A stretch of DNA of 64,000 nt from a virus. Its lineage: Duplodnaviria > Caudoviricetes. The notes below the pieces were generated by a model. That model saw only the letters and a program-made list of their open reading frames with translations, was not told where the DNA came from and made no database searches. Shown here piece by piece: positions 561 to 12,259 of this stretch (the stretch's first letter is position 1; the number at the start of each line of letters is the position of its first letter). The stretch is from positions 138,705-202,704 of the IMG/VR virus record IMGVR_UViG_3300044712_000786; one strand, given 5' to 3'. A program made the position numbers and the translations under genes.

Positions 561-635
561 TGGTACCCTCGGATGGACTTACACCACCAACGTCTCGCTA
601 ATCGGGCGAGCATTCTATTTTTGAATTACGAGGGC
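561..635 (-). tRNA. trnI: tRNA-Ile(GAT), C33
   Basis: Acceptor GCCCTCG/CGAGGGT-A-CCA; anticodon arm CTCGC-CCGATTA-GCGAG; T loop TGTAAGT. Confidence 0.85.
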
Positions 636-641
636 TTAAAT

Positions 642-716
642 TGGTCCCGTCGAGTGGAGTCGCACCACTTTTTCTGGTTCTTCAGACCAGCACACAAACT
701 CTTGTGTTACAACGGG
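642..716 (-). tRNA. trnF: tRNA-Phe(GAA)
   Basis: CCCGTTG/CGACGGG-A-CCA; CTGGT-CTGAAGA-ACCAG; T loop TGCGACT. Confidence 0.88.
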
Positions 717-815
717 TTGTCCTTAAGAACATGGTCAGCGCACATCAGCCTGTCCCCATTTACGCTGTGCGGCGAACGCGAGGATTAGGTAACTACTTAC
801 ATGCTCTTAAGAAAT

Positions 816-890
816 TGGTAGCCCTATCGGAACTTGCATCCGATTTCTCTGGTTGAAAGCCAGAACTCCTACTACATAGAGGATAGGGCC
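816..890 (-). tRNA. trnE: tRNA-Glu(TTC)
   Basis: GGCCCTA/TAGGGCT-A-CCA; TCTGG-CTTTCAA-CCAGA. Confidence 0.88.
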
Positions 891-986
891 ATAATGTCCT
901 TAATTGCTAGTATAGGTCGCTCTCCTTACTAACTATCAGCCAGCGAACTTGTTTGCACTGAGTTCTTATGTAATTAAGGACTAAAT

Positions 987-1061
987 TGGTAGCCCTATGC
1001 GGTTACGCTCCGCACCCTCTACCTTGAAAGGGTAGCGACCTGTCTACTAGTCGATAGGGCC
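987..1061 (-). tRNA. trnE: tRNA-Glu(TTC), second copy
   Basis: GGCCCTA/TAGGGCT-A-CCA; CTACC-CTTTCAA-GGTAG; T loop AGCGTAA. Confidence 0.85.
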
Positions 1062-1070
1062 ATTAAATTA

Positions 1071-1313
1071 TCATGGAACAAATGAAGGAGATTCTCCTTC
1101 AGCTAAAATAATGTTGCTAGGAAAAACTGGTTCTTCTGGCGTCTTAACTATTTTCAACATAATAGGTTCGCCAATATTCGGGCATTTAGCCCAATGCGTC
1201 CATTCATCTTGAATTCTAGTTAGTTTCTTAAATTCCAAATTAGTATGGTCTCCGCCGCATCTTGCACAAGTACGCACGGTAACTACCATATTATCCGCTT
1301 CTTCTATTTTCAT
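1071..1313 (-). CDS. hypothetical protein, possible zinc ribbon
   Basis: CARC...H...C motif; ATG 4 nt after tRNA CCA. Confidence 0.65.
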   Translation of the reverse strand: MKIEEADNMVVTVRTCARCGGDHTNLEFKKLTRIQDEWTHWAKCPNIGEPIMLKIVKTPEEPVFPSNIILAEGESPSFVP

Positions 1314-1317
1314 AAAT

Positions 1318-1396
1318 TGGTGCAAGCGGTGACAGTTGCAGTCACAGGAATATTCTGGTTAAGAGCCAGTTGCCCCTCTACTGTAGCTTCGCTTGC
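1318..1396 (-). tRNA. trnK: tRNA-Lys(CTT)
   Basis: GCAAGCG/CGCTTGC-A-CCA; CTGG-CTCTTAA-CCAG. Confidence 0.85.
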
Positions 1397-1404
1397 GAAA
1401 TTGT

Positions 1405-1668
1405 TTAGCAGCCTTTGCCGCCCCTTCTACCGCCCTTTTTGGGCATTTCTTTCTTAGCCATATCTTGATAATTTTGATATACTACTTTTGTTAATCCGTC
1501 ATTGATATTAGTTACAGAACGTTGAACTAATTCTAAAAAATTCCTAGCATCCGTTTCTTCTAAAAATCGCACCCCAAATCCCTTCCATACGCTATAATAT
1601 GAGTAAGAGCTTTTTTTGTATTGTTGAGGGACATATAGAACACCCTTTTTAACAATTCTCAACTTCAT
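1405..1668 (-). CDS. hypothetical basic protein
   Basis: ORF track; promoter directly upstream. Confidence 0.6.
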   Translation of the reverse strand: MKLRIVKKGVLYVPQQYKKSSYSYYSVWKGFGVRFLEETDARNFLELVQRSVTNINDGLTKVVYQNYQDMAKKEMPKKGGRRGGKGC

Positions 1669-1673
1669 ACTCT

Positions 1674-1701
1674 ATCTTAGCAAAATTTTGCCAGAAGTCA
1701 A
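1674..1701 (-). promoter_or_regulatory. sigma70-type promoter
   Basis: TTGACT-N16-TAAGAT with TGn extension, 5 nt before ATG. Confidence 0.75.
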
Positions 1702-1929
1702 CTACAAAGCTTTTCCGCAAATCAAACATTCGCACCAACCATCGGGGCCAGTATGATAATAGGTCTTGGGATGTCCACACAAATTCTGTTGTTTTTCAAG
1801 CTCTTTATTAAGAAGCCGCTTATTTCTTTCGAAGTCCTCTTCTAGTTTCCAAAGCGCTCGTTTATACCTAGAATAAGGGGAAGATTCTAATACTTGTTGC
1901 TGTTTAATGTATTCTTCGGACGTTAGCAT
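1702..1929 (-). CDS. hypothetical protein with C-terminal Zn-binding motif
   Basis: CGH...CECLICG; ATG 4 nt after tRNA CCA. Confidence 0.65.
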   Translation of the reverse strand: MLTSEEYIKQQQVLESSPYSRYKRALWKLEEDFERNKRLLNKELEKQQNLCGHPKTYYHTGPDGWCECLICGKAL

Positions 1930-1933
1930 AAAT

Positions 1934-2009
1934 TGGCTGCTCAACTAGGATTTGCACCCAGAATCTTTCGGGTCAGAACCGAAAATGTTACTAATTACAC
2001 TATTGAGCA
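1934..2009 (-). tRNA. trnQ: tRNA-Gln(CTG)
   Basis: TGCTCAA/TTGAGCA-G-CCA; TTCGG-TTCTGAC-CCGAA. Confidence 0.88.
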
Positions 2010-2194
2010 ATGTTAGTTAAAAGAGAAACCGTACAACCCTCAGAAACATAATGGACTTGATTCGTCTCCGTATCTTTAAATATCCAAGAGTCGCCAGTAG
2101 CCTGAGGGACATGGTAGACTATCGCTTTAGGGCAGAGAGTAAAACATATGCCATGAAAGTTTACACAAACGATATCTCCTTCTTTAATATGCAT
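2000..2194 (-). CDS. hypothetical protein
   Basis: ORF track; stop codon lies inside the tRNA-Gln 5' end. Confidence 0.6.
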   Translation of the reverse strand: MHIKEGDIVCVNFHGICFTLCPKAIVYHVPQATGDSWIFKDTETNQVHYVSEGCTVSLLTNIAQ

Positions 2195-10800: not shown

Positions 10801-10803
10801 AAA

Positions 10804-10879
10804 TGGTATCCCCGACTGGACTCCCACCAGTAATCTTCTCCTTAGAAGGGAGTGGCTTTAGTAATTTAGCTACGGGGAC
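10804..10879 (-). tRNA. trnR: tRNA-Arg(TCT)
   Basis: GTCCCCG/CGGGGAT-A-CCA; CTCC-CTTCTAA-GGAG. Confidence 0.87.
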
Positions 10880-10885
10880 TTAAAA

Positions 10886-11157
10886 AAACTAGAGATTGCT
10901 TTTACGCTAAAGACCAGAACATTGTACTTCTGTCTGCCGCTTCTTACTCGGTAGCCCTTAGCCGACTTTACGGCTAGCTCCACGCTTTCATCCCTTCCGC
11001 GAAGGCTCTTACATCCTATTATTAGCTACTAACAGGGTAGGAGAAATCCCTCGTATCGGATTTCGGGGTCATCCTGCGGTTAATTCCGCTCAGGTTCGTG
11101 CGAGAAGGACGAGTCACTTATCATGGATGGCTGTTTCTGAGCCTACCACTCTAGTTT
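10886..11157 (-). ncRNA. 272-nt highly structured ncRNA candidate
   Basis: Perfect 9-bp terminal stem AAACTAGAG/CTCTAGTTT enclosing at least six hairpins; GC-richer than the genome; no ORF. Confidence 0.7.
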
Positions 11158-11257
11158 AAAATTGTATGGTATTAGTTCAGGCTTTTACTGCTCTATAATG
11201 ATACGCTCCACCCATAACGGTTAAGCATGAAGCTGAGCTTTCTGTTCTCGAACAAAT

Positions 11258-11307
11258 TGTGCCCGAAGTGAGGACTCTTACCCCAATTTACGTTGCATCC
11301 CTCGGGC
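11258..11307 (-). ncRNA. minimal tRNA-like element (acceptor + T arm)
   Basis: GCCCGAG/TTCGGGC-A-CA; TGGGG-TAAGAGT-CCTCA; only ~17 nt in place of D and anticodon arms. Confidence 0.4.
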
Positions 11308-11348
11308 TAAGTGCAACCTGCTTTCTGTTCACGCAACATATGGAAGAT

Positions 11349-11424
11349 TGGTGGACACAGGCGGGTAACGCTCCCGCTTCTCACTCCTTGCAAGGGAGGC
11401 ACATCACTTTTCTGTCACTGGCCC
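11349..11424 (-). tRNA. trnA: tRNA-Ala(TGC)
   Basis: G3:U70 in GGGCCAG/CTG-T-GTCC; CTCC-CTTGCAA-GGAG. Confidence 0.85.
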
Positions 11425-11469
11425 AAAATTATTGTTACTTGCGCGGGGAATAACCGTGTAATATAATAT

Positions 11470-11841
11470 ATGAGGCATAGCCCTATAAAATTACTTTGCG
11501 CGTTTTGTAAAGAATCTTTTACTCGACCACTGTCTAAGTTAAAAAATAGTAAATCAAAAATATACTTTTGCTCTCGTCATTGTAAAGACGAGGCTCAAAA
11601 AATAAAGAATAAATTTACCGATATCCACCCATCGCATTACGGAACAGGCTCTTGCAAAGAAACATATAGACGCATTGCTCTAGAAAACCTTCCTCATAAA
11701 TGCAATCGTTGTGGTTACAATAAATTACTAGGCGTATTAGCAGTACATCATAAAGATAGAGACAAATCAAATAATCTAGTTAGTAACTTAGAAATTCTTT
11801 GCCATAACTGTCATGCCGAAGAACATATTCTAAACGATTAA
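11470..11841 (+). CDS. HNH endonuclease with N-terminal Zn finger (probable homing endonuclease)
   Basis: CNRCG...VHHKDRDKSNN...NLEILCHNCHAEEH; antisense to the array; GTGTAAT-N7-ATG upstream. Confidence 0.85.
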   Translation: MRHSPIKLLCAFCKESFTRPLSKLKNSKSKIYFCSRHCKDEAQKIKNKFTDIHPSHYGTGSCKETYRRIALENLPHKCNRCGYNKLLGVLAVHHKDRDKSNNLVSNLEILCHNCHAEEHILND

Positions 11842-11844
11842 AAT

Positions 11845-11937
11845 TGGTACTCCCCGTAGGTAACGCTCCTACACACGGCACTCATCTAGTGCGACTTGGG
11901 CTTATAAGGCCCACGATTCTCTTTGAATTAGGGGAGC
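11845..11937 (-). tRNA. trnI: tRNA-Ile(TAT) with long variable arm
   Basis: GCTCCCC/GGGGAGT-A-CCA; TGGGC-CTTATAA-GCCCA; V arm GCAC-TAGATGA-GTGC. Confidence 0.8.
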
Positions 11938-12012
11938 AAAAAATTACCATCAGGCCATGGTTTACATTACCATCTTTAAGACTTACGGTTTGTATCGTCC
12001 TGATGGACAAAT

Positions 12013-12086
12013 TGGAGCACTATATCGGTACTGCCCCGACTTATCCAGATTGGCAATCTGATGCATCACTTTTATGCTAATAGTGC
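12013..12086 (-). tRNA. trnG: tRNA-Gly(GCC)
   Basis: GCACTAT/ATAGTGC-T-CCA; TCAGA-TTGCCAA-TCTGG. Confidence 0.88.
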
Positions 12087-12092
12087 TGAAAA

Positions 12093-12166
12093 TGGTCCGA
12101 TATGTCAGAATCGCACTGACCCCACAAGTTCCCAAAACTTGCATGCTACTTCAACACCTATATCGG
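12093..12166 (-). tRNA. trnP: tRNA-Pro(TGG)
   Basis: CCGATAT/ATATCGG-A-CCA; CAAGT-TTTGGGA-ACTTG. Confidence 0.88.
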
Positions 12167-12175
12167 AGTGTAAAT

Positions 12176-12259
12176 TGGTAGGCGTAGAGAGACTTGCACT
12201 CCCAAGGCTTCATGGTCCTAAGCCATGCGACTCTGCTATTCGTCCTTAACCATACGCCC
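12176..12259 (-). tRNA. trnL: tRNA-Leu(TAG), enlarged D region, short V arm
   Basis: GGGCGTA/TACGCCT-A-CCA; CATGG-CTTAGGA-CCATG. Confidence 0.8.

Follow-up and report, generated by a model that had tools for sequence, protein, structure and literature searches.

G55 and A18 in place of U55 and G18 at the tRNA elbow throughout a phage tRNA array

U55, or pseudouridine 55, has been called the most universally conserved feature of transfer RNA (tRNA) (PMC7912444). To date, the only natural tRNAs described without G18-G19 and U55 are non-proteogenic. These are the staphylococcal cell-wall tRNAGly species, which read TGC or TGT in the T loop and are kept from translation (PMC7826273; PMC13443448). 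As U55 is missing, these tRNAs contain no pseudouridine 55. The present analysis concerns a tRNA array at positions 561-12259 of a 64,000-nucleotide (nt) stretch of phage DNA, hereafter the window, which is the final 64 kb of the IMG/VR virus record IMGVR_UViG_3300044712_000786. All 26 tRNA genes found in this region have G at position 55 and A at position 18.

Like the staphylococcal tRNAGly(UCC) NP1-3 and the S. epidermidis tRNAGly Ia and Ib, the phage genes encode natural tRNAs with TGC or TGT where TTC would stand. The staphylococcal molecules, however, belong to one amino-acid family, serve cell-wall synthesis and have no strong EF-Tu determinants, whereas the phage has a whole set for 20 amino acids. 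An extra pair in the anticodon stem shortens the staphylococcal anticodon loop (PMC13443448), while the anticodon loops of the phage have the normal 7 nt. Moreover, GG of the D loop is simply lost in the staphylococcal tRNAs, whereas a defined A18-G19 stands in its place in the phage.

Other related systems are the tRNA clusters of jumbo phages and the bacterial L-arrays (PMC8421152), which share with this locus long tandem arrays, encoded CCA ends, small open reading frames (ORFs), homing endonuclease genes and signs of horizontal spread. The L-array paper is silent on the T loop, G18 and U55, and the cultured-phage arrays examined here are canonical at position 55. A bacterial L-array sits in a bacterial genome, whereas the present array and its HNH genes belong to a phage genome that is complete and bears terminal repeats, and have relatives in metagenome-assembled genomes (MAGs) of Verrucomicrobiota. 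No description of decoding tRNAs with A18:G55, or of phage arrays with G55, was found in the literature searched, outside which most subscription journals lie.

The record comprises 202,704 bp with direct terminal repeats and is rated complete; the G+C content of the window is 39%. The 26 cloverleaf tRNA genes at 561-12259 all lie on the minus strand, and G55 is present in 26/26. This count draws on ARAGORN, on Rfam RF00005 (also at a looser threshold), on our own covariance model without filters, on cloverleaf parses and on ARAGORN runs with single candidates. Of the 26 genes, 14 are detected by default ARAGORN and 10 by Rfam with its own threshold, which suggests that counts of phage tRNAs in metagenomes are probably too low. 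The RF00005 scores of 14 genes range from 33.5 to 55.8 bits (cut-off 29), and in the RF00005 alignment the columns of U55 and of G18-G19 are occupied by this G and by A-G, respectively. We also screened the entire genome, on both strands, with a strict cloverleaf filter that demanded 7/7 acceptor pairs, 5/5 T-stem pairs and a terminal CCA. This returned 26 distinct elements, 24 of them with G55; the filter is specific, since all 26 are on the minus strand and 25 lie at 132.8-151.0 kb of the genome, in the array. The array extends about 6 kb upstream of the window with seven further G55 genes, including Cys, His, Leu and Ser, and genome-wide there are 33 G55 genes that fold as cloverleaves. The features of 561-12259 are as follows.

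561-635, minus strand, tRNA-Ile(GAT): T loop TGTAAGT; D loop AAAAATA; A18, A19:T56.
642-716, minus strand, tRNA-Phe(GAA): T loop TGCGACT; A18 G19.
816-890, minus strand, tRNA-Glu(TTC): T loop TGCAAGT; A18 G19.
987-1061, minus strand, tRNA-Glu(TTC): T loop AGCGTAA (A54); A18 G19.
1318-1396, minus strand, tRNA-Lys(CTT): T loop TGCAACT; variable loop of 8 nt; build as in a Lys tRNA of the virus fragment G004 (described below).
1934-2009, minus strand, tRNA-Gln(CTG): T loop TGCAAAT; D loop AATTAGTA.
2734-2809, minus strand, tRNA-Glu(CTC): T loop CGCAAAC (C54, CGNRA type).
3527-3604, minus strand, tRNA-Gln(TTG): T loop TGCAAAT; stems and loops 82% identical to Gln(TTG) of G004.
3686-3760, minus strand, tRNA-Asp(GTC): T loop TGCGAGT, D loop ATGAGTTA; relatives in cultured phages have TTCGAGT and ATGGGTTA.
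3874-4027, minus strand, tRNA mimic: canonical T arm AGCGG TTCAAAC CCGCT (3883-3899); rejected by ARAGORN and Rfam.
4242-4316, minus strand, tRNA-Trp(CCA): T loop TGCAAGT; weak D stem.
5390-5463, minus strand, tRNA-Asn(GTT): T loop AGCGTTA (A54:T58).
5473-5548, minus strand, tRNA-Asn(GTT): T loop TGAAATT; D loop AGACATTC; T19:A56.
6057-6132, minus strand, tRNA-Arg(TCG): T loop TGCAATT.
6149-6272, minus strand, tRNA mimic: canonical T arm AGAGG TTCGAGT CCTCT (6215-6231); rejected by ARAGORN and Rfam.
6350-6427, minus strand, tRNA-Arg(ACG): T loop TGCAACT; the sole gene of the 26 without an encoded CCA.
6806-6879, minus strand, tRNA-Met(CAT): T loop TGTAACT; A19:T56; acceptor stem with two mismatches at its base.
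6883-6971, minus strand, 89-nt tRNA with anticodon TTT (Lys): long variable arm; T loop TGGAAAT (G56).
7530-7604, minus strand, tRNA-Thr(TGT): T loop TGCGAGT.
7610-7696, minus strand, tRNA-Tyr(GTA), class II: T loop AGCGTTA.
10359-10436, minus strand, tRNA-Gly(TCC): T loop TGCAAGT.
10444-10517, minus strand, tRNA-Val(TAC): T loop AGCGTTA; unusual D arm.
10804-10879, minus strand, tRNA-Arg(TCT): T loop TGGGAGT; D loop AATTACTA; C19:G56.
11349-11424, minus strand, tRNA-Ala(TGC): T loop AGCGTTA; G3:U70; acceptor stem with a single-base bulge in its 3' strand.
11470-11841, plus strand, HNH endonuclease gene (123 aa) between tRNA genes; relatives in the arrays of G004 and of a second virus record, G003.
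11845-11937, minus strand, 93-nt tRNA with anticodon TAT (Ile): long variable arm; T loop AGCGTTA; build recurs in G004.
12013-12086, minus strand, tRNA-Gly(GCC): T loop GGCAGTA (G54 and G58).
12093-12166, minus strand, tRNA-Pro(TGG): T loop TGCGATT.
12176-12259, minus strand, 84-nt tRNA: T loop TGCAAGT; read as Leu(TAG), while ARAGORN at a low threshold gives Arg(TCG).

The elbow of these genes follows a defined pattern. The T loop reads TGCAAGT, TGCAAAT, TGCGAGT or similar in 15 genes and AGCGTTA or AGCGTAA in six; the remaining forms are CGCAAAC, GGCAGTA, TGGGAGT, TGGAAAT, TGAAATT, TGTAAGT and TGTAACT. The conserved set of G18, G19, U55 and C56 that marks the elongator tRNA elbow is not present: A18 replaces G18 in all parsed genes, and G19:C56 is mostly kept or swapped for another Watson-Crick pair. 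Where A18 is followed by C19, A19 or T19 rather than G19, the change is matched by G56, T56 or A56, respectively. At 54:58, 18 of the 26 genes have T:A and the five with AGCGTTA have A:T, while single genes have A:A (AGCGTAA), C:A and G:G; the closing pair G53-C61 is found in 23.

An earlier sequence-only reading of this DNA had described about 26 well-formed tRNAs, all with G55, five or six of them with A54, and D loops that mostly read AG instead of GG; the present counts bear this out, with A54 in six genes. It had also confined canonical TTCRA loops to the two tRNA mimics, and the hairpins at 3883-3899 and 6215-6231 are indeed the sole minus-strand TTCRA hairpins closed by G53-C61. G55 in the array lies far beyond chance, because it is absent from all 78 tRNAs of four cultured phages (12-26 tRNAs each in the stretches examined) and from the 30 best-scoring dispersed tRNAs of two Verrucomicrobiota MAGs that bear G55 arrays (Verrucomicrobiaceae and Chthoniobacterales). 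Of these 30, 29 have TTC and GG, and the thirtieth was read one base off register. These housekeeping tRNAs, used as a proxy for those of the host, are canonical, so that G55 would probably not be the norm in the host. The elbow with G55 and A18 is confirmed as real in all 26 genes of the array.

There is a structural precedent for such a loop. T loops outside tRNA have the consensus UGNRA, with CGNRA as a minor form, and in UGNRA loops the G at position 2 is bound through two hydrogen bonds by an adenosine intercalated between positions 4 and 5; tRNA, which has U instead of this G, is singled out as the exception (bioRxiv 10.1101/2022.12.26.521914). In the array, 18 of the 26 T loops have Y-G-N-R-A at positions 1-5 (TGCAA, TGCGA, TGGGA, TGGAA, TGAAA, TGTAA, CGCAA); those outside this pattern are six of the AGCGT or AGCGTAA type and one GGCAG. 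The phage loops thus show the same pattern as the UGNRA/YGNRA motif known from riboswitches for flavin mononucleotide (FMN) and for cobalamin and from other large RNAs, and position 3 remains available for long-range Watson-Crick pairing. Riboswitch loops dock onto receptors inside the riboswitch, whereas in the phage the general solution is placed in tRNAs. The GGCAG loop resembles the GGAAG loop of the ribosomal RNA type (bioRxiv 10.1101/2022.12.26.521914). Since UGNRA with an intercalating adenosine is usual in riboswitches, the same fold is plausible for the phage tRNAs, in which the contact between A18 and G55 would be made by the intercalating adenosine. The swap at 54:58 is a separate matter. 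ATCGTTA and ATCGAAA loops, with swapped 54:58, U55 and normal GG in the D loop, were found in Xanthomonas phage X1, Bacillus phage Bc431v3 and Pseudomonas phage Milchi (L285-L287). The occurrence of ATCGTTA with U55 in cultured Xanthomonas and Bacillus phages shows that A54 with T58 is a variant that was already tolerated.

Several comparisons indicate that the parts of the elbow changed together. In 116 viral stretches, each chosen with one G55 T arm as the seed, tRNAs were found with ARAGORN, and the register of position 18 was fixed solely by a unique Watson-Crick 19:56 pair, which avoids circularity. A count from the covariance-model alignment was dropped, as this alignment misplaces the D loop where loop lengths differ. 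The 18:55 combination in about 330 phage tRNAs was G:U in 253, A:G in 79 (41 of them outside the seeded T arm), A:U in two and G:G in none, and owing to the seeding these frequencies are biased and are not population frequencies. In mixed arrays the U55 genes retain GG and the G55 genes have AG; on one such contig, Leu(TAG) with TTCGAGT and AATGGCAG adjoins Leu(CAA) with TGCAAGT and AATAGCAG. The 19:56 pair of the phage is mostly G:C; Arg(TCT) has C:G, both Ile(GAT) and Met(CAT) have A:T, and one of the Asn genes has T:A. Such Watson-Crick swaps show that the outer elbow pair is maintained by compensating changes. At 54:58, related G55 elements have U:A in 97 cases and A:U in 10.

The tRNA-Asp gene allows the closest comparison, as it is the only gene of the array for which a match among cultured-phage tRNAs was found. 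With the tRNA-Asp of Bacillus phage vB_BanS_MrDarsey it shares 86% identity, and the acceptor stem, anticodon arm and T stem are the same. The D loop is ATGAGTTA versus ATGGGTTA and the T loop TGCGAGT versus TTCGAGT, so that the two loops differ only by G18A and U55G. Since Bacillus, Xanthomonas and Pseudomonas phages carry canonical members of this tRNA-Asp lineage, its elbow has been switched within the lineage and not merely inherited. Taken together, these comparisons support a coordinated remodelling of the elbow rather than its decay.

The genes also carry many of the signs expected of working tRNAs. The elongator cloverleaf, with a 7-bp acceptor stem, a D arm, a 5-bp anticodon stem with a 7-nt loop and a 5-bp T stem with a 7-nt loop, is found in the 26 parsed genes. 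When the upstream genes are counted, the anticodons span all 20 amino acids; U33 is present in all parsed genes except three, and CCA is encoded in 25 of the 26 genes. The T stems look ordinary and are rich in G+C. Identity elements were judged by the rules of E. coli: the Ala tRNA has G3:U70, G73 serves as discriminator in the tRNAs for Asp and Trp, in both for Gln and in one for Asn, U73 does so in Cys and Gly(GCC), and the 1:72 position of the two Gln tRNAs is U1:A72 in one and a U1-U72 mismatch in the other. Across 123 G55 elements from the phage and five other arrays, 96.4% of stem cells are paired, compared with about 40% when the partners are slid, and G53-C61 is present in 117. In matches of the same anticodon between arrays, 59 double changes that keep a pair were counted versus nine lost pairs.

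This alternative-elbow tRNA set is not unique to the phage. G55 is present in 36 of 38 parsed tRNA genes of the virus record G003 (207.8 kb, 94% complete) and in 27 of 31 of G004, an 83-kb virus fragment. Neither is close kin of the phage: they have no DnaE relative, and the three have only 16 ORFs in common, which include a PurZ-like cluster and HNH genes. Recognisable tRNA builds, namely Gln(TTG), Lys with an 8-nt variable loop and the long-arm Ile(TAT), are nevertheless common to the phage, G003, G004 and the arrays of the Verrucomicrobiota MAGs. The long-arm Ile(TAT) of G004 lies at L277:16738-16831. A search of 596 Gb of cellular genomes with a 17-mer of a G55 T arm gave tRNAs in 14 of the first 120 matches, about 70 matches being expected by chance; the same 17-mer lay in tRNAs in 45 of 116 matches in viral contigs. 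Among the cellular matches listed there are three G55-rich arrays, all in Verrucomicrobiota MAGs (Verrucomicrobiaceae, Chthoniobacterales and Rariglobus). The tRNA genes of the G55 arrays range from about 42% to 73% G+C. When 41 arrays with at least eight parsed tRNAs each were compared, 36 had a G55 share of at most 36% and five of at least 83%, with none in between. The sample was seeded, so that these shares do not give population frequencies. The bimodal distribution points to selection at the level of the genome.

A tRNA-Met(CAT) with TGCAAAT and A18-G19 was also observed in Saccharibacteria, Parcubacteria and other Patescibacteria, and a tRNA-His of the same type in Pelagibacteraceae (L141, L165, L166, L202, L223, L208), which suggests that some cells may use such an elbow in ordinary tRNAs.

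As to the phage itself, its genes include those for a ParB-like protein, a Ro60-like DUF2828 protein, a PurZ-like adenylosuccinate synthetase, ribonucleotide reductase, DnaB and the alpha subunit of DNA polymerase III. No close cultured relative was found: in the phage collection no protein exceeds 30% identity to DnaB or DnaE, and searches through the ParB-like or Ro60-like genes gave no close relatives or none with a tRNA array. The Ro60-like gene (window 15173-16648) lies about 3 kb from the array, and a DUF2828 gene also adjoins the canonical array of MrDarsey (L284). The PurZ-like synthetase gene and two neighbours (window 17536-21013) recur in G003 (at about 54-58 kb) with 29-35% identity, and both phages may replace adenine in their DNA.

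Other elements lie between the tRNA genes. Four degenerate tRNA-like elements ending in CCAATTT occupy window positions 2199-2350, 2365-2441, 8568-8634 and 8664-8733; one has an insertion of about 75 nt, two have a 6-nt T loop (TGCAAT) with a reduced D arm, and one has a 3-nt loop in place of the T loop. Four tandem units on the minus strand at 4321-4610 each have a 6-7 bp stem, a large loop starting with (A/C)ACAGCAA and TGTT after the stem, and give weak Rfam matches to Dicty_Class_I_RNA (25-29 bits, below the cut-off). Furthermore, 12 of 30 tRNA or tRNA-like 3' ends abut the ATG of a small ORF (51-105 codons) within a few bases, mostly as CCA-(A)TTT-ATG. There is no space for a ribosome-binding site, and processing of the tRNA would yield nearly leaderless messenger RNAs.

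The reading we prefer, with a probability of roughly 0.5, is that these are working decoder tRNAs with a second elbow design, which is kept across the set because it makes the tRNAs insensitive to a factor acting on canonical elbows. The structural part of this proposal is backed by the sequence data; the decoding function and the selective reason are what we infer from them. The T loop would have switched from UUCRA to the general UGNRA class, with CGNRA, GGNAG and the swapped A54:U58 as minor forms, and the D-loop base that stacks into it would have switched along, from G18 to A18. With the 19:56 Watson-Crick, 54:58 and G53-C61 pairs retained, the L shape and the flat stacking face for RNase P and the ribosome should survive. 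Since U55 and G18 are gone, pseudouridine 55 and Gm18 cannot be made, and the bases needed by any protein that reads U55 or G18 would no longer be shown. The set-wide switch may thereby keep the whole tRNA supply of the phage insensitive to the factor, of which the likeliest kind would be a tRNA-directed nuclease of host defence or of a phage host-shutoff function. The all-or-little pattern among arrays, together with the switch inside a canonical lineage, points to selection on the whole set by a trans-acting factor that reads the canonical elbow. Phage tRNAs with changed anticodon loops escape host anticodon nucleases. The idea would be the same here, in that a phage supplies its own tRNAs with altered recognition features so that translation survives tRNA cleavage. 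In that case, however, the change affects the anticodon loop of particular tRNAs, whereas here it affects a universal structural contact far from the anticodon, in every tRNA of the array.

A number of observations weigh against this proposal. Two tRNA genes of the phage have stayed canonical: Leu(TAA) (genome 85127-85215) and one of the CAT type (135432-135506). The array has odd members, with Lys (TTT) and Ile (TAT) anticodons on long-arm class II bodies, besides the degenerate tRNA-like elements, and the sampling of arrays was seeded as described. Lone A18:G55 tRNAs occur in otherwise canonical arrays and in genomes of the Candidate Phyla Radiation (CPR) and of Pelagibacteraceae, which indicates that the design works without a special phage factor and need not be an evasion. 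No TruB, CCA-adding enzyme, RtcB or RNA_ligase domain was found in the phage genome, and no candidate for an elbow-discriminating factor was found in the phage or among the genes common to the three G55 phages. The sequence-only reading had suggested coordinated selection, either to evade elbow-recognising host defence or modification or to let a phage factor tell phage from host tRNAs. The coordination stands, on the covariation at 18:55, 19:56 and 54:58, on tRNA-Asp and on the bimodal arrays; a discriminating phage gene was not found. Searches of the rest of the phage genome with Rfam gave no RNase P RNA or other family.

One candidate partner was considered and rejected. A 212-aa HNH protein (genome 127205-127843; L001:7205-7843) carries, ahead of its HNH motif, a conserved N-terminal domain (about 115 aa), and 19 relatives were found in metagenomes. 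Relatives lie beside four of the five other G55-rich arrays (L121, L189, L215 and G004), with none in about 230 other loci. Six further relatives in IMG/VR, however, have no tRNAs nearby or canonical ones only. Rather than as a partner nuclease, the protein is read as a probable array-associated homing endonuclease, of the sort described for L-arrays.

A stronger version of the evasion idea would make A18:G55 a universal mark of self. An enzyme would disable every tRNA with G18 and U55 while being blind to the G55 set of the phage, so that translation continues. It could be a nuclease or a modifying enzyme made by the phage for host shutdown, or an abortive defence triggered by the host, and the canonical elbows on the two non-decoding mimics could then serve as decoys. 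We regard this version as doubtful.

Alternatively, the benefit could lie in folding itself. An elbow with G55 and A18 may be stable without pseudouridine 55, m5U54 and Gm18, and some 35 tRNAs made in a burst would become independent of the TruB, TrmA and TrmH of the host. It is consistent with this that unmodified riboswitch T loops favour G at position 2 with an intercalating A (bioRxiv 10.1101/2022.12.26.521914), that the staphylococcal G55 tRNAGly is nearly unmodified (PMC7826273), that the phage has no TruB of its own, and that lone G55 tRNAs exist in mixed arrays and in the small genomes of CPR bacteria. However, the cultured phages with 12-26 tRNAs keep U55 throughout, and a benefit to each single tRNA predicts intermediate arrays, of which there are none between 36% and 83%. 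This explanation seems unlikely.

A neutral legacy is rather improbable as well. In this case the design would have arisen once, in a mobile array lineage spread by homing endonucleases, and would persist without adaptive meaning, as its reversal requires two matched mutations per gene. The builds shared among the phage, G003, G004 and the Verrucomicrobiota MAG arrays fit such a history, as do the HNH endonuclease genes common to these arrays and the few other genes that the phages have in common; homing endonucleases beside tRNA arrays have been described and proposed as their spreaders (PMC8421152). Yet the tRNA-Asp lineage is canonical in three groups of cultured phages, so its state was switched within the lineage, the design is retained over a wide range of G+C, and selection accounts more readily for the almost complete uniformity inside a genome.

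Lastly, the genes might not encode ribosomal decoders at all, and might be decaying copies, processing signals along a long transcript, or donors of amino acids that stay off the ribosome, as the staphylococcal cell-wall tRNAGly does. The non-proteogenic nature of the known tRNAs of this kind, the 3' ends abutting small ORFs, which would suit processing sites, the plainly degenerate neighbours and the genes scored low or missed by standard finders all agree with this. It is nonetheless the least probable explanation, since 20 amino acids are covered with 7-nt anticodon loops, near-constant U33 and fitting discriminator bases, compensatory changes maintain the stems between distant arrays, G53-C61 is nearly constant among the 123 elements, the extra anticodon-stem pair of the staphylococcal tRNAs is absent, and a role in processing is compatible with decoding.

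If the array is a complete decoding set, as the preferred reading holds, the G18/U55 contact would be one of at least two workable solutions for the tRNA elbow. Pseudouridine 55 and Gm18 would be dispensable for a whole translation set, and RNase P, the synthetases, EF-Tu and the ribosome would tolerate an alternative elbow. The natural matched pair of G18/U55 and A18/G55 offers a probe for what TruB, TrmH and elbow-reading nucleases read, and a possible handle for orthogonal tRNAs. Were A18:G55 indeed a mark of self, the translation system of the phage would be made orthogonal through a structural contact, not through the anticodon.

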